Of a stretch of 64,000 bases of DNA, positions 7,105 through 64,000 are shown one piece after another. The first letter of the stretch is position 1; the number at the start of each line of letters is the position of its first letter. The translations under genes and the position numbers were made by a program. The DNA is from a virus, in IMG/VR virus record IMGVR_UViG_3300045988_111260; one strand, given 5' to 3'. A model generated the notes under the pieces. The model was not told the DNA's origin and did no database searches. It worked only from the letters and a program-made list of their open reading frames with translations.

Positions 7105-9132
7105 TTATACTAATTCCTCCTTTGCGTCATTTTTAATAGTGAAATTCTTAAGCCAAAACTCAAATTTATCTGGTACATCTTTGTAGATTTTCTTTCCTGT
7201 TTTTGTATTGATCTCCCCAGTTGGTTCTTTTTTATGTTTCTTCTCAACTGATTTCAGATATAGAATATCTCCTTCATCGAATGGGTTCTTCTTATATTGG
7301 TTTGTCCACATTTTTACTTTCTGTGTTTTTCCAGAGTAAATTTCATATAACTGAATGTTAACGATGGATTTTTTAACATCAAGATCTGAAACATAATATA
7401 ATCGTTTATTAACTTTTACGTTAGCATAGCTTACAATTCCGAGAACATTTCTCTGATTGTCTAATTTTTCTTTCAAAGACAATTCTCTGTATGGAATATT
7501 TTTTATAGATTCAATAAGTAATTGTTCTGAATCTAATTGATTATAAAGTGTTTTTGTCTCATGACCATACTTCAAAAGTAAATCAGAAGAAATGTGATAT
7601 TCTATCGCCTTTTCTTTGGACAATTGCTTTTTCCCATTTAATAATTCATAATATTTAACTGTTTCTAATAAGGTATTCGCATCTCCGAACTCTACAAAAT
7701 AATTAATTTTAATTAATTTGTCTATCACTGTTTTATTGAGATGATTCTGCTTTAATACATTGATTACTTCTATGAATGAGCTGTATTTAGCCTGTCCTAA
7801 ATCATATAGTGAATTGGCGACACCTTCTCCAAATCCTTTAATGCTTGATAAATTGGGATATATAATTTTATGTTCTTCATCAATCGTGACTTTTCTATTG
7901 TCTGCTCCAAACCGATAATCTCCCAATTTATATCCCCAAAATTTAATGGCTTCTTTTACTAGAGCATCAATTTTATCTTTCTTATTTTTTTCTTGGTAAT
8001 GATTAATTGCTACTTCATAGAACATTTTCGTATAATGAGCTTTAAACCATGCCTGATAGGCAGAATCCTCAGCCATCGACCAAGCATGCGGAGAGTTGAA
8101 GGCGTACGAAGCTGATGAGTCTATAACTTCCCATATATTATTGAAATTATTAAGTTCTCCAATTTCAATTTGCCAACCATCTTTTAATCTTTCTTTCAGT
8201 TCTTTTAACTTTTCAGGATGAGCTTTATATTTTTTTTTCGAGATATTTTTAATAACTCCATACGTTTCGCCCATCTTCAATTGCAGGAAAGATAATACCT
8301 TCATAATTGACTCTTGATAAATCATAAAATGTGCTGTATCTTGTAACAACTCATCAATTTTCTTTTCGCCTGTTGAATATGGTTCACGATTTAAAAAAGT
8401 ATTTAATAAAGATGCAAATCCTGGTCTAATTGCAGCAATGAAACTACTTAATTCTGCTAAATTTTGTGGCTTATATTTCTTTGCTCTATTTGTTGTCGCT
8501 TCTTTTTCACATTGGTTAACACAACAAGTAATTCCTTTTGCATAAATATCCCATGTTTTATGATCTCCTTCTATCATCTCTCTCAGTTCTTCAGATGTAG
8601 GAACCTCCATTCCTATACTGTGAAAAAATTTATATGTAAGATAAACACTATCTACAATAAGAAAATCTTCTTTTACATATCCAAATTCATCAAGATAGCC
8701 ACCTTCAATGGCGGCACAAATTGTTCTTTTCCCAGTCGTTTCTGAAACAGCACTAATTAATCCTACTTCTCTACGAATATCTCCGTCGAATATAAAATGC
8801 CCACAAGCATGTACTTTTAGATTGATAGTAATTCCTTGATATTCGTTGCTTTGTTTAAATAAATCAACGTATTCTTCTGGAATATAATCTTCAACATGAA
8901 TAAAATCTTTATCTTCTTCATCAGCATATTTTAATGCTTTATTATAGTCATCAAGATATTTTGAAATTCTGTTTGCATCTTCTGGACTAACATCGTTAGC
9001 TCCAGCATATAATTGCCATGCTGCTTTCTCTTTTAACTTTTCTATAGCCATTAACGGATAACATCCATGCTCTCCAAGAAGTTTTTTTGCAGCTTTCACA
9101 AATGGTTCCTGAGTAGCTACATTTAGGTCAAT
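7105..9132 (-). CDS. dnaE: DNA polymerase III alpha (DnaE-type), exon 2; the frame is open upstream of the annotated GTG and begins IDLNVATQEPFVKAAKK
   Basis: IAAIRPGFASL and MIYQESIMKV match the DnaE palm/fingers RPGPM and YQEQ motifs; IDLN completes the catalytic PDIDLN when joined to exon 1. Confidence 0.7.
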   Translation of the reverse strand: MDLNVATQEPFVKAAKKLLGEHGCYPLMAIEKLKEKAAWQLYAGANDVSPEDANRISKYLDDYNKALKYADEEDKDFIHVEDYIPEEYVDLFKQSNEYQGITINLKVHACGHFIFDGDIRREVGLISAVSETTGKRTICAAIEGGYLDEFGYVKEDFLIVDSVYLTYKFFHSIGMEVPTSEELREMIEGDHKTWDIYAKGITCCVNQCEKEATTNRAKKYKPQNLAELSSFIAAIRPGFASLLNTFLNREPYSTGEKKIDELLQDTAHFMIYQESIMKVLSFLQLKMGETYGVIKNISKKKYKAHPEKLKELKERLKDGWQIEIGELNNFNNIWEVIDSSASYAFNSPHAWSMAEDSAYQAWFKAHYTKMFYEVAINHYQEKNKKDKIDALVKEAIKFWGYKLGDYRFGADNRKVTIDEEHKIIYPNLSSIKGFGEGVANSLYDLGQAKYSSFIEVINVLKQNHLNKTVIDKLIKINYFVEFGDANTLLETVKYYELLNGKKQLSKEKAIEYHISSDLLLKYGHETKTLYNQLDSEQLLIESIKNIPYRELSLKEKLDNQRNVLGIVSYANVKVNKRLYYVSDLDVKKSIVNIQLYEIYSGKTQKVKMWTNQYKKNPFDEGDILYLKSVEKKHKKEPTGEINTKTGKKIYKDVPDKFEFWLKNFTIKNDAKEELV

Positions 9133-10274
9133 CCTTGATACCCTCGGTTTCCCGATATTTTAATAGGGGAGTAGACTATACCATAATCGTCGATATTATC
9201 TCGGATTCCCATTGGTAGTCGTTGCGAGCTTCCCATATTGTATATTTAAACAACTTAGGGCTATCTCTCAGGATTATCCAATCCTTGCCGCTGTTACCAT
9301 ATCATTGCAGTTAACAATGCCACATTTTGATTTCTCTAATGCTTGGTGGACAAGGTTTTAGGACTTCCCCTGATATTCTGGGTTTTCTATATATATCACT
9401 ACATATAGCGACTATTATAACAGTACATATTCTACGTTATTTACATTGAACTTTTCTTGTTTAAGAAATTGTTTTAGTTCTCGTTGAGTGCAATTTAGTA
9501 GTGGATACAATTTTTTCATCATATCTTTCAACAAATAAAATCTTTTATTAGTCATATCTGCATAGATTTTTCGTCCGACATTACATTCGCACAAATACTC
9601 GAATTGATTGTTTAATAAATATTCATACATTTCTTTTGTATATAAAACAAAATGATAACCATAAGCTAAATTTTGTTTATTTAATAAGCACCTTGATATT
9701 GATGATGTATTTTTAATATGTAATTCTTTTGCAGCATCCTTTTGTGTCTTATATATTTTTAGAGTTTCAACACATATTACAGACTTGGCATTTGGGTTAT
9801 TTTCATTTAAATTTTTCCCAATCTTTTTTTGAGATAAATTTCTTTTCATTTCTTCAGTCCATTTATGCCCATAATTTGGGTTATTCGTCCCCATAACCAT
9901 TCTTCGCATTTTTTCTCTATATTCATCTGTAGGATTTGGGATATAACATCCAGATCCACCACCATTCATATTGTAGCCATTTTTATATGTGTTTAATTTT
10001 TTAATCCAACTCTTCTCTTTCTCATCAAGATCTTCTCTTTTACACTCTTCTAAAATATAATGTTTAAAACTTTCTTCACCATATTTATTAAAACTACGTT
10101 GCAAATAACAATTTGCATGATCGTTTCTTCTTAAACTATTTAGATGATGTTTCCATCGATCATTTATATCTACACTTTGTCCAACATATTTTTTATGATT
10201 TACAATATTTTCAATACAGTAAATACCTGTAATAAAAATTCCTCCTTTACTGGTTTATATGCACTATTGTTTTA
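9133..10274 (-). mobile_element. Group I intron (about 1.14 kb) interrupting dnaE, carrying a GIY-YIG homing endonuclease ORF
   Basis: Exon 1 ends ...AGQMPD then TAA; exon 2 frame opens at IDLN; intron 3' part contains a P7-like GACUA...(P8)...GGUAUAGUC and ends in G. Confidence 0.65.
9415..10233 (-). CDS. GIY-YIG homing endonuclease (I-TevI-like), intron-encoded; probable non-AUG (ATT) start 7 nt after GGAGG
   Basis: ITGIYCIENIVNHKKYVGQSVDINDRWKHH...NCYLQRSFNKYGEESF lies in frame upstream of the track's TTG start; C-terminal NUMOD-like region. Confidence 0.7.
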   Translation of the reverse strand: MTGIYCIENIVNHKKYVGQSVDINDRWKHHLNSLRRNDHANCYLQRSFNKYGEESFKHYILEECKREDLDEKEKSWIKKLNTYKNGYNMNGGGSGCYIPNPTDEYREKMRRMVMGTNNPNYGHKWTEEMKRNLSQKKIGKNLNENNPNAKSVICVETLKIYKTQKDAAKELHIKNTSSISRCLLNKQNLAYGYHFVLYTKEMYEYLLNNQFEYLCECNVGRKIYADMTNKRFYLLKDMMKKLYPLLNCTQRELKQFLKQEKFNVNNVEYVLL

Positions 10275-11546
10275 ATCGGGCATCTGACCTGCTAAAACAC
10301 GGTCTTTTGTTAAAAAGCGTTCTGGATAAATAGGAATATCTGCATTGAATCTATCTACCGTTGTTAATCCTAGCAACTTATTTGTAATGAATGATGCAGC
10401 GCTACCTCTTGACGTAGTAGTTAATATTCCACCTTCGCAATTTACTGCATCATCTACAATTGCTTTACTTGTTAAAAAGTAATCTACAACTCCTGAATCC
10501 ATGACTTGTTTTGCTTCATACCTAATTCCATCTGCTTTTTCTTTTGATTTTTCTTTTTCTTTAGCATAGGCTTTGTTTAATATTTTCTTATAAATAGCAC
10601 ATTTACCTTCATATGTTTTATCTTTATGAACGCTTGGAATTTTAAATTTTCTGTCAAAAACAATTTCTTCGCATTCTGACATGAACACATTTGTGTTCAT
10701 AATAGCAGTTAAGACTTCTTCCTCAGAAAGAACTCCTTGCTCTTGAAATCGCTCTATAACCGTTGTTGTGTCTGGATAATCCATATACCATCCAAATTCT
10801 TCTGGATATTCAATATGCTTGTACTTTAAAATCTGATCCCTTTTTACTGCCGTCTTATCATCAATGTAATGACTATCAAGCCCACAAATGATCTGAATAT
10901 TGTGTTCTTTTGCAAGTTTTAAGATTTTTCTGTTAAGTCTTTTTTGTGGATCAGTATTATGAGCCTGCACTTCTAAAAAGAAATTATCGCCAAAATAGTC
11001 ATGTATTTTTAACCAAATGTCCTCTGCATCTTTATAATGCCAACCAGATAAGCAAGCCGATGTAACAATTACATTCTCTTTTGGAATATTAAAAAGTAAT
11101 TCTAAGTCAATTCTTGGTTTGTAATAATATCCATCAATATTTGCCATAGAAAGGGCGAAGTTAATATCTTCTCTCCCTTCAGCATTTTTCGCAAGTATCA
11201 TCATATGACAGTTTGCTTTGTCTTTTTCTTTTCTATCTTTCACCCAGTAGGCTTCAGCAGAATGAATATATTTCAAATGCTCCTTTTCAGCCACTTTATA
11301 TACTTCAAACTGGTTTCCTTGTGACCCATGCTCCCCTGAATAAAGACATTTTGCACCAAATTCATGAATACGTTTTGCATAATTTTCAATTGATTCTGCA
11401 CAATCTGGAGTTGATGTATTACTAAAATCTTTATGACAATGGTAGTTTTCAAGATATAGATTTCTTCCATAATCTTCAACAGAATATGGAAATTTAAATT
11501 TTAATGTTGGGATAATTTTTGCAATTAAATCTTCATACATAATCAT
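10275..11546 (-). CDS. dnaE: DNA polymerase III alpha (DnaE-type), exon 1 (PHP domain through catalytic-site Asp)
   Basis: PHP YLENYHCHKDFS; RGSAASFITNKLLGLTTVD...ERFLTKDRV...MPD matches DnaE GRGSAAGSLVAY...ERFLNPER...MPD(IDxxF). Confidence 0.75.
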
Positions 11547-57939: not shown

Positions 57940-58004
57940 TGAAGTGGTGTGGTAGGAATTGAACCTACCAATAAAAGCACTCTTTTGTCTACCATACGCC
58001 ACCG
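57940..58004 (-). ncRNA. tRNA-like fragment (canonical T arm plus imperfect acceptor; no D or anticodon arm)
   Basis: Minus strand GGTGGCGTATGGTAGACAAAAGAGTGCTTTTATTGGTAGGTTCAATTCCTACCACACCAC: T arm GTAGG-TTCAATT-CCTAC; acceptor pairs 6/7. Confidence 0.35.
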
Positions 58005-58130
58005 TTTTTCCGTTCCAATACGTCACTACTAGCAATCAGTAGTACAGTTTTTCCGTTCATTTAAAGTAACTATTAGCTTCAATAGTCGAGTCTTTCCGTT
58101 AGGGTGTATACTCATATCATCATGAGTAGT
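58005..58130. repeat. Three tandem units of about 43 nt, each a different short hairpin followed by a conserved TTTCCGTT (plus sense)
   Basis: TTTTTCCGTT at 58005, 58049, 58093; hairpins ACTACT/AGTAGT, CTATTAG/CTAATAG-like, TACTCAT/ATGAGTA. Confidence 0.5.
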
Positions 58131-58138
58131 AAAAGCCT

Positions 58139-58396
58139 TTAATTGGCTATGTAACTAAATAATTCTGACGGATCTTCTTTTAAAATTTCCGTCATGCCGT
58201 TAATTGCTTCTTCTTGCGTTTTGTACTTCCGAAAAACTCCGAACGTATTCTTGAATAGCAAGAAGTATTTACAACCATGTAAGCTATCATCAATTCCAGC
58301 GTTCGGAGGATTTTCCGTGTAGTACAGTGTGTTGTACTTTCGTTCAATGTGACACGCTAATGCTTCCATAGTCGTTCTGCGACTCATTCTTTCCAC
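58139..58396 (-). CDS. Hypothetical protein
   Basis: 85-aa ORF. Confidence 0.4.
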   Translation of the reverse strand: MERMSRRTTMEALACHIERKYNTLYYTENPPNAGIDDSLHGCKYFLLFKNTFGVFRKYKTQEEAINGMTEILKEDPSELFSYIAN

Positions 58397-58403
58397 CTAC
58401 TTT

Positions 58404-59075
58404 CTATGCCATTGCAAGCTGTCTACTTCCGATAGCATTTTTTCCACTACGTTTACCTTCTTCCCATGATTCTTTTGCGTAGTAACTTCTTGTGTTTAGT
58501 CTGTTTTTTGTAGTTTTACAATCTTTTGTTCTTTCCTTAAAGGCTTCTTCTACTTCTTTTGGTGTCACGATCATCAATGCTGTACATTGTTTTTCCAAAA
58601 TTTCTGCAATACCATCTAAAAATCCAATAAGAAAACAGTTCTTAATGCCTTTCCCGTAAAAACTGATTCCAATTTCTTTACATTCCTTTTTCTTCTTATT
58701 GTAAAATTTAGTTGCTAATTTATTACCCATATTAAAAAGATACTTGAAAGTTTCTGTTGCAATTTCTGCATCTGTTTTGTATCCATAAAATACAACAGTG
58801 GATTTTCCATAATAAAAATGTTGGCATCTAAAGTTTCTTGCAATGATCGTAGATAATCTATATTTCCATTTGTTCCCAGTTCCTACATTAGTACATTCTT
58901 CTGAAATATTTTCAGAATCTTCAATACCGCTGACTTCTTCCATAGAAATATGGTACTCTGCCATCAATTTCTGTGCCTTTAAGGCTGCCGCCTGGGCTTC
59001 TTTTTCCGATGGATTGTTCTTTGATAGTTCCAGTACATTCTTAATTTTATTGATAATCTTTTCTGTGTTTTCCAT
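58404..59075 (-). CDS. Hypothetical protein (DUF2786-like N-terminus)
   Basis: KIKNVLELSKNNPSEKEAQAAALKAQKLMAEYHI resembles the DUF2786 N-terminal helix. Confidence 0.4.
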   Translation of the reverse strand: MENTEKIINKIKNVLELSKNNPSEKEAQAAALKAQKLMAEYHISMEEVSGIEDSENISEECTNVGTGNKWKYRLSTIIARNFRCQHFYYGKSTVVFYGYKTDAEIATETFKYLFNMGNKLATKFYNKKKKECKEIGISFYGKGIKNCFLIGFLDGIAEILEKQCTALMIVTPKEVEEAFKERTKDCKTTKNRLNTRSYYAKESWEEGKRSGKNAIGSRQLAMA

Positions 59076-59091
59076 GATTCTCTATTCCTTT

Positions 59092-59277
59092 CTATTTATA
59101 ATAAACATCTACATTGTTCTTATCATCGTGTGACCAACTAGATCCAACGTATTTTCCACTGTTACCGCAATCTTCAAGATCGTATTCACAACATAAGTCA
59201 TTGTATTCATCGGGCGTATTACAAAAAATTTCTGTTCTACCATCGGAATAAGTATTTTTTACTATTATAATTTCCAC
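59092..59277 (-). CDS. Hypothetical small protein
   Basis: 61-aa ORF. Confidence 0.3.
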   Translation of the reverse strand: MEIIIVKNTYSDGRTEIFCNTPDEYNDLCCEYDLEDCGNSGKYVGSSWSHDDKNNVDVYYK

Positions 59278-59284
59278 CTTCCTT

Positions 59285-59557
59285 CTATAATCTTTCCATC
59301 AGTTCTACAGCTAAGATGTACGCTACATACTTCCACACATTCACGTAGCCGTTCAGATCCTCCAATCTACATTGTAAAACTGTATGAATCATTCCATCAC
59401 AGAATCCTTTACTTTTAAGTTCTGCGATAAGATCTTTCTTTGCGATCGGTGGCAAGGCTGCGACTCTGATTTTTCCAATGTCAAAAGTGTTACGTTCTTC
59501 CTTTTCTACTGTCTGAATCACTACCATGTTTGTTCTTGTCATCTTTAAAATTTCCAT
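59285..59557 (-). CDS. Hypothetical protein
   Basis: 90-aa ORF. Confidence 0.4.
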   Translation of the reverse strand: MEILKMTRTNMVVIQTVEKEERNTFDIGKIRVAALPPIAKKDLIAELKSKGFCDGMIHTVLQCRLEDLNGYVNVWKYVAYILAVELMERL

Positions 59558-59558
59558 T

Positions 59559-60062
59559 CTAGTGTTCCTCCTGGTTATCTTTTTTTGTAATTGTTATGTC
59601 GTAGCCTAACTTTTTCCACCATTCTTTTGTTCTTTGTCGAATATCATTTAAGTTATCCCACCACATATCGTTCAATTCTGGTACAATTTCTGCATAATCG
59701 TTTATATCTTGAATGACACCATATGATTCGCAAATAATAATATCGGGATATGATTTTACAGAAGGTATTGCCATATTTTCTATATTGAAAACATCAACCA
59801 ATAATCCTACATCTTCATTATTTTCTACTTTAAAATAGGTGTACGTTCTATCACTGCTCGTATCTTCTACCATTGGCACAAGATCAAAATTTATTATCAT
59901 TTTGTTTACAATGCTTTTCTTATCTTCCCACTGTTTTGCACGTTTCAATCGTTCTTCGTATTGCAAACAATGACTTTTTGTCGTAAATCGTTTTCCATCT
60001 TCTGCGATATATACAGTGTCTTTGATGATTCTTTCTTTCGTTTCAATCTTCATAATTTCCAC
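59559..60062 (-). CDS. Hypothetical protein
   Basis: 167-aa ORF. Confidence 0.4.
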   Translation of the reverse strand: MEIMKIETKERIIKDTVYIAEDGKRFTTKSHCLQYEERLKRAKQWEDKKSIVNKMIINFDLVPMVEDTSSDRTYTYFKVENNEDVGLLVDVFNIENMAIPSVKSYPDIIICESYGVIQDINDYAEIVPELNDMWWDNLNDIRQRTKEWWKKLGYDITITKKDNQEEH

Positions 60063-60071
60063 ACTTCCTTT

Positions 60072-60380
60072 CTATGCCGTTTCTTCTTCTTTTTCGTACT
60101 CTTCACGATCCTTATAGTACATATCTAACAGTTCTCTATACTTCTTTTCGCTGTCTGTCATGTACAGTTCGTTGACACTAGACCATTCATTCAAGCCCTT
60201 TTCTAAGATCATCACGTACTTTCTTAGCTTGATTCTGCCCCATCTCATGTTATTATTTCCAACATCAAAGAAATAGTTATCTAACATACAGCCTTCAAAA
60301 CTATCTGCTAAGTAATCATCTAAAGTCATGCAAAACATTTCTACTGTATCATTATCAATAATCGTTCTATAATCTTTCAT
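60072..60380 (-). CDS. Hypothetical protein
   Basis: 102-aa ORF. Confidence 0.4.
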   Translation of the reverse strand: MKDYRTIIDNDTVEMFCMTLDDYLADSFEGCMLDNYFFDVGNNNMRWGRIKLRKYVMILEKGLNEWSSVNELYMTDSEKKYRELLDMYYKDREEYEKEEETA

Positions 60381-60659
60381 TTACGCCACCCCCATTGATT
60401 CTAATGCAAACATAAAAGCTACAACTTCTCTATCACTAGAAAGAATATCACCCCTATAATTATTAAACTCTTTAACAAAATCTAAATGACTTTCTATAAA
60501 AGAATCACCAGCTTCAAGTGCTTCTATATAACCAGCTACTCGATCATAGTTATCATATAAAAAGTCGTATTCTTCATTGAATTTTTCCAAAAATACCTTG
60601 ATATTAATATTAATTTCTTTTCTCATAGTTCCAACCTTCTTTCTATCTGATTTTCCCAT
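60381..60659 (-). CDS. Hypothetical protein
   Basis: 92-aa ORF. Confidence 0.4.
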   Translation of the reverse strand: MGKSDRKKVGTMRKEININIKVFLEKFNEEYDFLYDNYDRVAGYIEALEAGDSFIESHLDFVKEFNNYRGDILSSDREVVAFMFALESMGVA

Positions 60660-61248
60660 TATCTGCGATCGCTTCTACGTCATCACAGTAACTATTACAA
60701 GGATTCCATACACAATAGCTTGTTACGTGCTTTCCCTTGCGTACACGTTTGTTATACGCAAGGTAGTAACCTTTTCCATACGTTCCATGTTTACCTCCGG
60801 CAGAAACACTTTTAATAATTTCCACGTAAATAGTATGCTTTACAGCACGTTCACGGATCATTTTATCCGTTAGTTTTCCAGTGCTGATATACTTTACATT
60901 ATAGGCGTTTAGATCGTATTCATGCCGTATATAATCGTTTATAAGCTGGATATTTCTATTCTTTGCCGTGATTTTTACGATCGAATCATCGAGCTTATTT
61001 CTAGTGCCGTGAGTATTAAATTTTACAGTGACAACGGTAGTCCCTGGATAGGCATATGATTCCTTGCGAACTTTCCAACAATAGCCGTCAACCGTGTCAA
61101 TTGTGCCGTCACTGTTATAAATACCTTTAATTGTTCTGTACTTGCTTCTTTTTGTCTTTGCATACACTGTATTTTCCAGCATTAAAAAAGCCGTAAACAT
61201 AATTACTACGGTTAATAAGATCTTAATTGTTTTGTTTTTTGTTTTCAT
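60643..61248 (-). CDS. Secreted protein (signal peptide); function unknown
   Basis: N-terminal KILLTVVIMFTAFLMLENTVYA signal peptide. Confidence 0.45.
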   Translation of the reverse strand: MKTKNKTIKILLTVVIMFTAFLMLENTVYAKTKRSKYRTIKGIYNSDGTIDTVDGYCWKVRKESYAYPGTTVVTVKFNTHGTRNKLDDSIVKITAKNRNIQLINDYIRHEYDLNAYNVKYISTGKLTDKMIRERAVKHTIYVEIIKSVSAGGKHGTYGKGYYLAYNKRVRKGKHVTSYCVWNPCNSYCDDVEAIADNGKIR

Positions 61249-61268
61249 TGCGTTCTGTACCTTCTTTC

Positions 61269-61664
61269 TTAATATTCAAAATTCGGAAATAGTTCGTATA
61301 AATCTTCTTCATCTATGTATTTTCCATTAATTGTGATACTAACGACATAGGATACAAAATATTTTCCATTATCATCTTCTAAACCATCATCATCTTCTTG
61401 TTTCCAAAAAGAAAAGCAACTACCACAAATACAAATATCTTTTGCTTCTAAATTGTTAATAAAATGCTGATTGATTTCATTAAGAACGAATTGTTCAAAA
61501 TTGAAATTTTTTGCTTTTGCTAATGTGGATTTTCCCGTTAACCAGTCTGCATCTTTTCCACGTAAAGGATCAATAAGTTCTCCATGTTTATTCTCTTGAA
61601 ATATGTCGGCAGAAATCCCATACAATTTAATTGTGTCAAGTTCTCTATATTTTTCAAAATTCAT
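61269..61664 (-). CDS. Hypothetical protein
   Basis: 131-aa ORF. Confidence 0.4.
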   Translation of the reverse strand: MNFEKYRELDTIKLYGISADIFQENKHGELIDPLRGKDADWLTGKSTLAKAKNFNFEQFVLNEINQHFINNLEAKDICICGSCFSFWKQEDDDGLEDDNGKYFVSYVVSITINGKYIDEEDLYELFPNFEY

Positions 61665-61689
61665 AATCGTTTACCTTCTTTCTATTTTC

Positions 61690-61878
61690 TTATTCTATAT
61701 CTGTATCATCAAATCCAACGCAAGCAAGCATATAGACAGCGGTAATCATTAATAATAACGCTTCTAATATAAAGGCTTGCGGTATCTTGATAAATGTAAT
61801 AATAGCCGTTACAATCCATACAATCGCAACGGCTATATCTGTTATAGCTGGTTTATGTAGTTGTGTCTTATTTTCCAT
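61690..61878 (-). CDS. Small two-TM membrane protein
   Basis: 62 aa, hydrophobic. Confidence 0.35.
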   Translation of the reverse strand: MENKTQLHKPAITDIAVAIVWIVTAIITFIKIPQAFILEALLLMITAVYMLACVGFDDTDIE

Positions 61879-62203
61879 TGTTCTTTCCTCCTGGTTTATT
61901 TAAATCAATAATAATCGTATTATTTTCGTCAACAAAACTTCCATAAGAAAATCCATTTCCCTTTATATCGTGACATTTTCTACCATTGGAAAGTATAGTA
62001 AGTTGATACGTTGCCTTTTGTAATCTGCGGATTAACTCGGTTATATTGTTTTGGCTCGCTGGAAATCCCATTTTCTCACAAATTTCTTTAGCTAAGCCCA
62101 CTGTTTTATTTTTCTTTTCTGTTTTAACAAAAACATCTTTGCAACCCATCAAAAAGTAAAATCCATTCATTGTATTCATATCTTTCCACCTCCTACTCGT
62201 CAA
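61868..62203 (-). CDS. Hypothetical protein
   Basis: 111-aa ORF. Confidence 0.4.
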   Translation of the reverse strand: MTSRRWKDMNTMNGFYFLMGCKDVFVKTEKKNKTVGLAKEICEKMGFPASQNNITELIRRLQKATYQLTILSNGRKCHDIKGNGFSYGSFVDENNTIIIDLNKPGGKNNGK

Positions 62204-62444
62204 CTCTTTCTATCATGAAATTACCACCATGATATAAATTAAGTCCGTGATTTCCAGCAGTAATATACATATCATCATTGATTCCATCACGTTCTATGTC
62301 ATCATCTGAAACAAATACACCCATATTTCCATCAGATTCTAGTTGATCGATCGCAAGATCTAAGATTGCACAGTAGTCCGTTGTAGGTTCATCAACTGTT
62401 ACAAGTTCGCTAAAATAACTATAAATCACTCTGTATTTTGTCAT
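62193..62444 (-). CDS. Hypothetical small acidic protein
   Basis: 83-aa ORF. Confidence 0.35.
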   Translation of the reverse strand: MTKYRVIYSYFSELVTVDEPTTDYCAILDLAIDQLESDGNMGVFVSDDDIERDGINDDMYITAGNHGLNLYHGGNFMIERVDE

Positions 62445-62502
62445 AATATCTTTCCTTCTTTCTGCCCTTTACGGGACTTTATTTTTCTTTATAAGTTCAA
62501 CA

Positions 62503-62533
62503 AAATAGACAAGCCGTGTTTTGACTTGTCTAT
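62503..62533 (-). terminator. Intrinsic terminator after gene 62580..62978
   Basis: Minus strand ATAGACAAGTCAAAACACGGCTTGTCTATTTTGTTG: 8-bp stem plus U-run. Confidence 0.45.
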
Positions 62534-62579
62534 ATATTCATCAGCATATAAATATTGTTCCATCGTTCAAACACTCCTT

Positions 62580-62978
62580 TTATAACATTTCTTTTAACTG
62601 TGCAACGATAATTGCGTTCGTTGCTTCAGTTGCTAGATAATTCCAATTATCATTGAATTCTTCAATTTCATACATATCAGAAATGACATCGTATCCGATA
62701 ATATAGTAAAGCATATTGGCAAGTTTTTCGGGATCTGAAATGTCGGTTGTTACTTCTCCGAAGTTTAATTCTTCGTAGTCCTTGACTTTCTCAATCGCTT
62801 TAAATACGTCATATTGTTTTAGTGCTTCTTTTGCTTCATAAGTACCGATAATATAATAATCAGTGTTAAATACTTCATCGTGTAAGTCGCAGTAATAACC
62901 GTCGTAACCACCTTCTAAACACTCAATAATATCGTTCATTGCTTCTTCTCTTGTAAAATATTTTTTTGTTGCTGTCAT
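62580..62978 (-). CDS. Hypothetical acidic protein
   Basis: 132-aa ORF. Confidence 0.4.
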   Translation of the reverse strand: MTATKKYFTREEAMNDIIECLEGGYDGYYCDLHDEVFNTDYYIIGTYEAKEALKQYDVFKAIEKVKDYEELNFGEVTTDISDPEKLANMLYYIIGYDVISDMYEIEEFNDNWNYLATEATNAIIVAQLKEML

Positions 62979-63045
62979 AATAATATACCTTCTTTCTTGA
63001 AATACCCGACTTATAAAAGCGGGATTTTATAGCTACAATAAAAAA

Positions 63046-63070
63046 GACACAATCTTTTTTTAGATCGTGC
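63046..63070 (-). terminator. Intrinsic terminator (repeated at 63334..63357 and 63732..63756)
   Basis: Minus strand GCACGAUCU-AAAAAAA-AGAUUGUGUC then UUUUUUAUUG; three near-identical copies, each just downstream of a small gene. Confidence 0.45.
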
Positions 63071-63079
63071 CTTTATGGT

Positions 63080-63265
63080 TTACGCTATTCCTTCACTAAA
63101 AAACCAATCAAGGAAATCACTTGTATATGGTTTTTTCGTCAAGTGAATATCCTTTTCATTCTTTCGAATAAAAGCCCAACATTCAATTTTTGTTTCAAAA
63201 CTAGTTGAATGTTCCATATTTGTTTTTTTATCGACATAGTCAATATAGTACTTCATTCTTTTCAT
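63080..63265 (-). CDS. Small protein, cassette copy A (identical to 63766..63951)
   Basis: 61 aa MKRMKYYIDYVDKKTNMEHSTSF...; RBS AAGGAGG; flanked by conserved leader hairpin and terminator. Confidence 0.5.
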   Translation of the reverse strand: MKRMKYYIDYVDKKTNMEHSTSFETKIECWAFIRKNEKDIHLTKKPYTSDFLDWFFSEGIA

Positions 63266-63366
63266 AGTTGTTTACCTCCTTAATACTACGACCAGCTTTT
63301 CAAGGCTGGATTTTCAATAGTTACAATAAAAAAGACACAATCTTTTTTAGATCGTGCCTTTATGGT

Positions 63367-63549
63367 TTAGAATAGCCCGATATATCCATATTCTCCATCG
63401 TACCATTCTTCTAAATCTGCGACTCTTAAGTCGTAGTTATAACCCGTGCTAGGGTATCCTTCTTCCATACATTCATATGAAATTTCTTCACATTCAGCTA
63501 AAAACTGATTGTGGATTGTTTCTTTTAATCTTTCAATTGCTTCTTTCAT
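63367..63549 (-). CDS. Small acidic protein, cassette B (different ORF, same leader and terminator)
   Basis: 60 aa MKEAIERLKETIHNQFLAECEE...; identical 5' leader GTAGTATTAAGGAGGTAAACAACTATG. Confidence 0.45.
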   Translation of the reverse strand: MKEAIERLKETIHNQFLAECEEISYECMEEGYPSTGYNYDLRVADLEEWYDGEYGYIGLF

Positions 63550-63765
63550 AGTTGTTTACCTCCTTAATACTACGACCAGCTTTTCAAGGCTGGATTTTTC
63601 AGTTATAAGTTCATGAATGACTATAAATAGCGGTGTCTTAGACAGTGGCATGGCGTAAAGCGTACATACTAAGCAAAGTGTTATTTATAGCCCATCATCG
63701 ACCTATAAAAGAATATAGTTACAATAAAAAAGACACAATCTTTTTTTAGATCGTGCCTTTATGGT

Positions 63766-63951
63766 TTACGCTATTCCTTCACTAAAAAACCAATCAAGGA
63801 AATCACTTGTATATGGTTTTTTCGTCAAGTGAATATCCTTTTCATTCTTTCGAATAAAAGCCCAACATTCAATTTTTGTTTCAAAACTAGTTGAATGTTC
63901 CATATTTGTTTTTTTATCGACATAGTCAATATAGTACTTCATTCTTTTCAT
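63766..63951 (-). CDS. Small protein, cassette copy C (identical to 63080..63265)
   Basis: Exact duplicate including flanks. Confidence 0.5.
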   Translation of the reverse strand: MKRMKYYIDYVDKKTNMEHSTSFETKIECWAFIRKNEKDIHLTKKPYTSDFLDWFFSEGIA

Positions 63952-64000
63952 AGTTGTTTACCTCCTTAATACTACGACCAGCTTTTCAAGGCTGGATTTT

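Follow-up and report, generated by a model that had tools for sequence, protein, structure and literature searches.

The last 970 bases of a 64,000-nucleotide (nt) stretch of viral DNA (IMG/VR record IMGVR_UViG_3300045988_111260, the whole of which is called the window here) are filled by three small units, A, B and C, which were read on the minus strand (Table 1). Each unit consists of a leader, one short open reading frame (ORF) and a terminator hairpin, T1. ORFs A and C encode the same protein of 61 amino acids (aa), and the 60-aa protein of ORF B is unrelated to it. The leader, AAAATCCAGCCTTGAAAAGCTGGTCGTAGTATTAAGGAGGTAAACAACTATGAAA, is 55 nt long and was present in three copies with 0 mismatches, while dinucleotide shuffles of the window gave 0 matches to it. 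The terminator hairpin, GGCACGATCT-A(n)-GATTGTGTC with a T-run, begins nine bases past the TAA of each ORF. The segment 63034-63314 is repeated exactly at 63720-64000, over 281 nt, and the adjoining base differs (G at 63033, A at 63719). Within the window, the leader/T1 pair was confined to 63029-64000. The 115 nt between copy C and unit B correspond to an element of the 5' untranslated region (UTR) which, in related phages, is placed directly upstream of the leader of the first gene. The window end at 64000 coincides with the 5' boundary of the 55-nt sequence common to the three leaders, so the sequence upstream of copy C is not visible.

An earlier note, made from the letters of the window, had described three leader-ORF-terminator units here, and all the features it listed were present. 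The perfect 280-bp duplicate that it reported for A and C, flanks included, is the 281-nt repeat, and its copy B does carry a different ORF between the same flanks. The leaders are identical as claimed, but the terminators are not, the loop being A7 in A and C and A6 in B.

Table 1. Features at the end of the window, listed in the direction of the minus strand
Feature	Position	Strand	Description
Leader, unit C	63946..64000	-	Hairpin CCAGC-N8-GCTGG at 63978-63995, Shine-Dalgarno sequence (SD) AAGGAGG, ATG
ORF C	63766..63951	-	61 aa, identical to ORF A
Terminator T1, unit C	63720..63760	-	13-bp stem-loop, loop A7, at 63729-63760, then U-tract
Junction of T1 flank ...TATTGTAACTAT / ATTCTTTTATAGG... 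of long hairpin	63714..63715	-	Unique to window
Structured 5'-UTR element	63600..63714	-	Long imperfect hairpin, ~107 paired-region nt, once in window
Leader, unit B	63544..63598	-	Hairpin 63576-63593
ORF B	63367..63549	-	60 aa, very acidic (net charge ~-11), ORFan, purifying selection
Terminator T1, unit B	63331..63361	-	Loop A6
Leader, unit A	63260..63314	-	Hairpin 63292-63309
ORF A	63080..63265	-	61 aa, ORFan, purifying selection, commonest slot occupant among relatives
Terminator T1, unit A	63043..63074	-	Loop A7
Leader 2	62979..63028	-	AAAATCC + hairpin CCCGC...GTCGGG (63005-63023) + SD AGAAAGAAGG
Second-slot gene	62580..62978	-	132 aa, acidic, phrog_10208 (function not known)

Cargo exchange at the head of the early operon

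Human-gut metagenomes and IMG/VR yielded about 90 related stretches, gathered with exact-protein look-ups and scans for DNA patterns. In nearly all of these relatives the leader/T1 pair occurred once per genome, always in the first slot of the early operon. At this one locus the same leader and T1 enclosed at least five unrelated ORFs. Cargo A was found at most loci and cargo B at about a dozen, while a 229-aa protein with a Cys-rich tail (cargo D) occupied the slot in L017, L035 and L045, and an 81-aa protein (cargo F) in L072. The slot of L083 held a 120-aa gene usually placed further downstream, and that of L088 a D::DUF7659 fusion. An 84-aa gene, E, filled the slot with a leader of its own in L027, L030, L033 and L036, and in L046 the slot was empty, with no gene between the UTR element and a terminator. 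The common flanks extend to ATGAA and restart at the TAA stop, which indicates that replacement is precise to the ORF. Leader variants (GTAGTATTAAGG, GTAGTGTTAGG and GTAGTATCAAGG) and loop variants were paired with different cargos, and this reassortment shows that exchange takes place inside or beside the leader.

A second leader, whose hairpin loop varies from 4 to 16 nt, was always located 3' of T1. It precedes at least four unrelated genes, namely ArdA (two types), the 132-aa gene, DUF7659 (312 aa) and the 120-aa gene, in different strains, and therefore marks a second swappable slot. In this way, comparison of the sequences supported the view that phages of this population swap cargo between conserved regulatory flanks. 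What can be swapped here is one slot, or two neighboring ones, as opposed to cassettes in a general array. The modular shuffling proposed in the earlier note is thus supported, and the absence of the leader/terminator pair from related genomes, which would have spoken against it, was not observed; a general multi-cassette array is not supported, nearly all relatives carrying the pair once.

The layout around the slot, read in L001-L010 and L016-L025, was constant among relatives. It begins with a divergent 77-84-aa helix-turn-helix (HTH) gene, repressor-like, followed by two tandem consensus promoters, each with the palindrome GTATTGACATA(G/A)CAATAC, and by 0.8-1.2 kb of non-coding DNA ending in an intrinsic terminator, T0, and a CCAG-N8-CTGG hairpin. 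An invariant 24-mer, a structured element of ~110 nt, and the leader with one ORF and T1 come next; the second leader (AAAATCCCGC...GTCGGG hairpin and AGAAAGAAGG) and the remaining early genes complete the order. The locus is thus the first gene position of an early operon, adjoining the lysogeny control region, and not a genome end. Terminal redundancy, including a host-takeover terminal repeat of the SPO1 type, was rejected on this position beside the HTH control region and on the internal location of the locus in contigs of 140-550 kb, which also excludes the terminal-repeat artefact raised in the earlier note.

Both A and B are translated genes, as judged from low ratios of nonsynonymous to synonymous polymorphism (pN/pS, 0.14 for A and 0.07 for B) and from polymorphism concentrated at third codon positions. 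Homologue searches with A and B returned only matches inside the lineage, all of at least 72% identity, and for A an exhaustive HMMER search over 1.8 billion representatives yielded one cluster. Neither Pfam nor PHROGs had a match to A, B or D. The AlphaFold models were weak, with a predicted local distance difference test score (pLDDT) of 77 for A (one model of five) and 66 for B, and Foldseek with the A model found no match in PDB and BFVD at E <= 0.001. The 132-aa and 83-aa proteins downstream have net charges of -19 and -14, respectively. The guanine-cytosine (GC) content was 0.285 for A, 0.344 for B and 0.337 for the window.

RNA elements and the surrounding phage

The T1 stem (GGCACGATCT/AGATTGTGTC) contains two G.U pairs and is extended to 13 bp by AAA/UUU. 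Its fold reached -15.6 kcal/mol on the sense strand (z -6.3) compared with -8.1 kcal/mol on the antisense strand, which folds less stably because of the two G.U pairs; T1 is accordingly a predicted sense-strand intrinsic terminator. Where the slot held E or was empty, the terminator kept its 3' arm, GTTGTGTCT, and an altered 5' arm (AGACACAAC or AGACATAAC) still pairs with it, which supports the hairpin as the selected feature. Two structures form in the folded leader, a 5-bp hairpin (CCAGC/GCUGG) and a 7-bp stem (UCGUAGU/ACUAUGA), the latter covering the start codon and holding the SD in its loop. On the plus strand the leader hairpin has 7 bp and a U-rich tail, resembling an antisense terminator, and no gene lies on that strand; natural variants of the hairpin were evenly split between sense- and antisense-favoring pairing.

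The long hairpin of the UTR element was found in three sequence types with the same imperfect fold (-29 to -34 kcal/mol, z -3.6 to -4.0). In an alignment of 13 sequences, 98.8-100% of the cells in its helices were paired, compared with 28-45% in slid controls. Four of its pairs showed compensatory double changes, such as CAUGG/CCAUG, CUUAG/CUAAG and CGUAG/CUACG, and a fifth compensatory pair belongs to a separate upstream hairpin of the tested structure. Several G.U pairs make the fold specific to the sense strand. Rfam searches of the window end and upstream UTR, at gathering and permissive thresholds, returned noise only, the long hairpin matching no family, and a covariance model of it found no second copy in the window. 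The covariation indicates that the long hairpin is a structured 5'-UTR RNA not previously described, which could serve as an RNase III-type processing site, a stabilizer or an antitermination element.

The non-coding region beyond the window end (L016 4215-5265, with equivalents at L001 9060-9840 and L011 8990-9835) contains three CCAG-N8-CTGG hairpins and, in L016, a 270-nt insertion. It had no Rfam match, and it may encode a regulatory RNA or an antitermination system. The three hairpins precede terminators and their stems showed no covariation; comparison with the lambda-type nut/N system identified no antiterminator. A further strong intrinsic terminator lies 3' of the 132-aa gene (62505-62533, minus strand), and a AAAGTCCC-GTAA-GGG hairpin with an SD was observed between it and the 83-aa gene. 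As several terminators interrupt the early operon, read-through or antitermination is implied. Small ORFan proteins, most of them very acidic, are densely encoded at 58000-63000 of the minus strand, and the early region of relatives includes ArdA, HicAB, Bro-N/ORF6N anti-repressor-like genes and DpnD-PcfM.

Viral (IMG/VR) contigs with the locus were 142-166 kb long, and several metagenome contigs of 200-547 kb hold it internally, which indicates an integrated element. The element is a temperate phage of the human gut, of ~150-165 kb. Its host is probably a Firmicute, a member of the Lachnospiraceae, judging from the relatives of one window protein (54-60% identity), which are mainly in Lachnospiraceae genomes. 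Among 185,579 species genomes, none matched an anchor sequence. The region was compared by near and distant BLAST with 50,697 phage records, in which the units had no match and only the 132-aa gene had relatives, weak ones, in phages of Lactococcus and Enterococcus. The window belongs to a large phage without close relative among deposited phages. Its ORFs of at least 100 aa with a family match were all on the minus strand, and the matches included an NAD-dependent ligase, a split DNA polymerase, a DnaB-type helicase, a RecJ-like nuclease and a sliding clamp. Beyond the control region, a protein of ~960 aa had a weak PF05183 match and may recall YonO of SPbeta (PMC5467207).

Two further RNA features were observed on the minus strand of the window. 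A group I intron at 9151-9428 (Rfam RF00028, 50.1 bits, gathering score 50) sits between the DNA-polymerase ORFs at 7105-9099 and 9415-10104; its DNA was 76% similar to Intron_gpI as annotated in Clostridium phage phiCD211, and it had short matches in SPbeta-like Bacillus phages. A 142-nt transfer RNA (tRNA)-like gene at 34575-34716 (Rfam tRNA, 44.9 bits), missed by ARAGORN, has canonical 5' and 3' halves with ~73 nt of AT-rich sequence inserted between them near the anticodon, which makes it an interrupted, or intron-bearing, tRNA.

Stacked units and the junction of copy C

More than one leader per stretch was found in the window, L016 and L011 only. L016, a SPAdes contig of 184 kb that matches the window at 98.5% identity over 1.7 kb, has the order UTR-hairpin-leader-B-T1-leader-A-T1-132 aa and a normal UTR upstream. 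The order in L011 was UTR-hairpin-leader-B-T1-leader-A-T1-partial hairpin-E. B is thus placed ahead of A in all three, while in most relatives the UTR is followed directly by A. Because the tandem is carried by L016 and L011, two independent assemblies, the B-A tandem is real and recurrent.

In L011, a chimeric fragment of the long hairpin (10469-10620), with its 5' part of type 1 and its 3' part of type 2, follows gene A; it is joined directly to a degenerate T1 and then to gene E, so that three different cargos are stacked in one genome. This fragment is an independent T1-to-hairpin recombination with a breakpoint different from that of the window.

The invariant 24-mer was preceded by the CCAG hairpin of the UTR in 45 other loci and by the T1 of gene A in the window only. 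The resulting junction, TATTGTAACTAT|ATTCTTTTATAGG (63715/63714), is the expected product of a head-to-tail duplication of a 686-bp block, hairpin-leader-B-T1-leader-A-T1. A look-up of the 34-aa ORF spanning the junction gave no match. A 686-bp tandem duplication is likely, copy C itself being without support outside the window. In our reading, a duplication or rearrangement joining T1 to the hairpin was present in the sampled population; how many units lie upstream of 64000, and in which order, is not fixed by it.

Interpretation and comparison with known systems

Taken together, we consider it likely that the locus is the first-gene slot of an early (lytic) operon, with swappable cargo and stacked units. 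The slot would be a fixed expression frame made of the structured 5'-UTR hairpin, the 55-nt leader (small hairpin, strong SD and ATG), an ORF and T1, and the frame is retained while the ORF, from its start codon to its stop, gives way to one or another unrelated small gene. Units would be stacked by recombination within or next to the conserved flanks, as with B and A in tandem here, and an additional illegitimate joining of T1 with the UTR hairpin would have brought in at least part of a second 686-bp block, copy C. The sequences show the anatomy of the units, the replacement of cargo, the stacking of B and A, the fold of the long hairpin and the coding nature of A and B. Relatives that co-infect the host or reside in it may exchange cargo by homologous or microhomology recombination, and selection would keep only those joints that fall at gene boundaries. 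Any cargo might then be expressed immediately early by read-through from the operator-controlled promoters ~1 kb upstream, and the cargos may be host-takeover or counter-defense proteins. The last point is a reasonable guess, but only a guess, and confidence in any specific RNA mechanism or protein function is low.

Several observations weigh against this explanation. The relatives are ~90-99% identical, so conservation of the flanks alone proves little. No sigma-70-type promoter was detected in the units, and the slot is separated from the upstream promoters by T0. Neither the leader hairpin nor the stem over SD and AUG varies in the alignment, which for that reason speaks neither for nor against the processing or regulatory role suggested for the hairpin in the earlier note, and their folding is weak (z -1.6 to -1.9). 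A and B were without homologues outside the lineage and without a fold match, and the sole basis of the counter-defense guess is the first position in the early operon, the ArdA neighbor and the acidity of the products. Finally, the junction of copy C was not found in the other related loci (46 examined), in IMG/VR or in JGI metagenomes.

That uniqueness among 46 loci and absence from two collections would also be expected if copy C were an assembly artefact, the true genome carrying only B-A as in L016 and the assembler having circled the repeat loop at the contig end. An end at the boundary of a 55-nt leader is typical of a k=55 graph vertex or of a contig ending at a repeat, a 99.8% identical contig (L024) breaks inside this same leader at its start, and both L016 and L011 have a normal UTR upstream of B. 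However, the junction TTGTAACTAT|ATTCTTTTATAGG shares no assembly-length k-mer, only one to three bases, with either parent context; such a sequence is not creatable by a de Bruijn graph, and reads carrying the junction must therefore exist. The T1-to-hairpin join of L011, with its own breakpoint, also speaks against an artefact, which we judge unlikely while giving it appreciable weight.

The closest described system is that of the promoter-early stem-loops (PeSLs) of T4-type phages, composite promoter and stem-loop motifs flanking ORFans, which mediate replacement, insertion and mini-circle formation and reach ~50 copies per genome (Arbiol et al. 2010, PMC2839356; Comeau et al. 2014, PMC4122927). 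The units might be mobile regulatory cassettes of this type, with an early promoter and a stem-loop in each spacer and recombination excising or inserting genes, possibly via mini-circles. Here, too, a composite intergenic motif of stop codon, stem-loop terminator, AT-rich stretch, SD and ATG flanks ORFans (cf. PMC2839356), single-gene indels and replacements separate close relatives, and tandem or direct repeats able to recombine are associated with the motif. In contrast to PeSLs, no sigma-70-like hexamer pair was detected by a consensus scan on the sense strand of any T1-leader spacer (62979-63079, 63266-63366, 63550-63765 and the equivalent spacers of L016), and the units are therefore not PeSLs in the strict sense. 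The motif is also restricted to the first one or two positions of one operon, not dispersed in ~50 copies, the frame includes a long 5'-UTR hairpin with covariation, and the phage, temperate and of a Firmicute host, is not T4-type. A PeSL-type mechanism was considered decidedly improbable. The position of a short ORF and a terminator at the operon head, behind a long structured UTR, would fit a leader-peptide-type attenuator acting in cis on the downstream early genes, but the ORFs, of 60-229 aa, bear no relation to one another and their proteins are under purifying selection, the end of the ORF is not overlapped by any alternative anti-terminator pairing, and the slot can be empty; an attenuator was rejected as very improbable. 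Imperfect hairpins bound each unit, and unit number and order vary, as if the hairpins were sites of a site-specific recombinase (as attC in integrons) and the units true mobile cassettes. Against this, the genes called within 10 kb to each side include none with a recorded integrase or recombinase domain, the breakpoints vary from event to event, and the unit boundaries match translation signals instead of a core site, so integron gene cassettes were rejected and recombinase sites regarded as extremely improbable. A bolder form of the slot reading would take the long hairpin, leader and T1 as a 'plug-in dock' for immediate-early counter-defense genes, the hairpin as a new cis-acting processing or stabilizing element giving any inserted ORF the same expression burst, the 686-bp repeat as an adaptive 'gene accordion' amplifying B-A, and A, B, D, E and F as five new anti-defense or host-takeover proteins; this was held to be rather improbable.

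Taking the locus as a swappable first-gene slot, other known systems can be compared. Morons of lambdoid and other temperate phages have reportedly been treated by Juhala et al. in 2000 and by Hendrix; classical morons have their own promoter and often a different base composition. The likeness to morons or hypervariable cassettes suggested in the earlier note was borne out by the cargo swapping between conserved regulatory flanks, and, as with morons, an extra small gene with a terminator is present in some genomes and inserted precisely between neighbors. The differences are that the scan found no promoter (it was of sigma-70 type, other promoter types lying outside it), that B has window-like GC, and that the same flanks are reused for different cargos. 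First-expressed counter-defense genes are known as T7 gene 0.3/ocr, with RNase III-processed early mRNAs, as ArdA, and in the leading regions of plasmids. They share with the present locus the start of an early transcription unit, with ArdA adjoining in many relatives, small and very acidic products, and long RNA hairpins between cistrons, but A, B, D and F had no detected homology to known anti-defense proteins. Elde et al. are said to have described, in 2012, gene 'accordions' of poxviruses, in which a host-range gene is amplified in tandem. If copy C is real, the head-to-tail 686-bp repeat of an early accessory-gene block resembles them, but only a partial second unit is visible here.

The locus is thus a variant of known phage mosaicism, in which the same leader and terminator are reused for different small genes, and, outside T4-type phages, it offers a clean natural case of replacement at regulatory linkers that is precise to the ORF. 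Stacked units break short-read contigs, so that copy number at such loci is systematically uncertain. Five ORFan families (A, B, D, E and F) are nominated as candidates. If the slot works as proposed, the leader and terminator would serve as an address by which immediate-early genes of the abundant, uncultured prophages of the gut can be searched for, and the genes found at such an address would be likely to serve counter-defense or host takeover.

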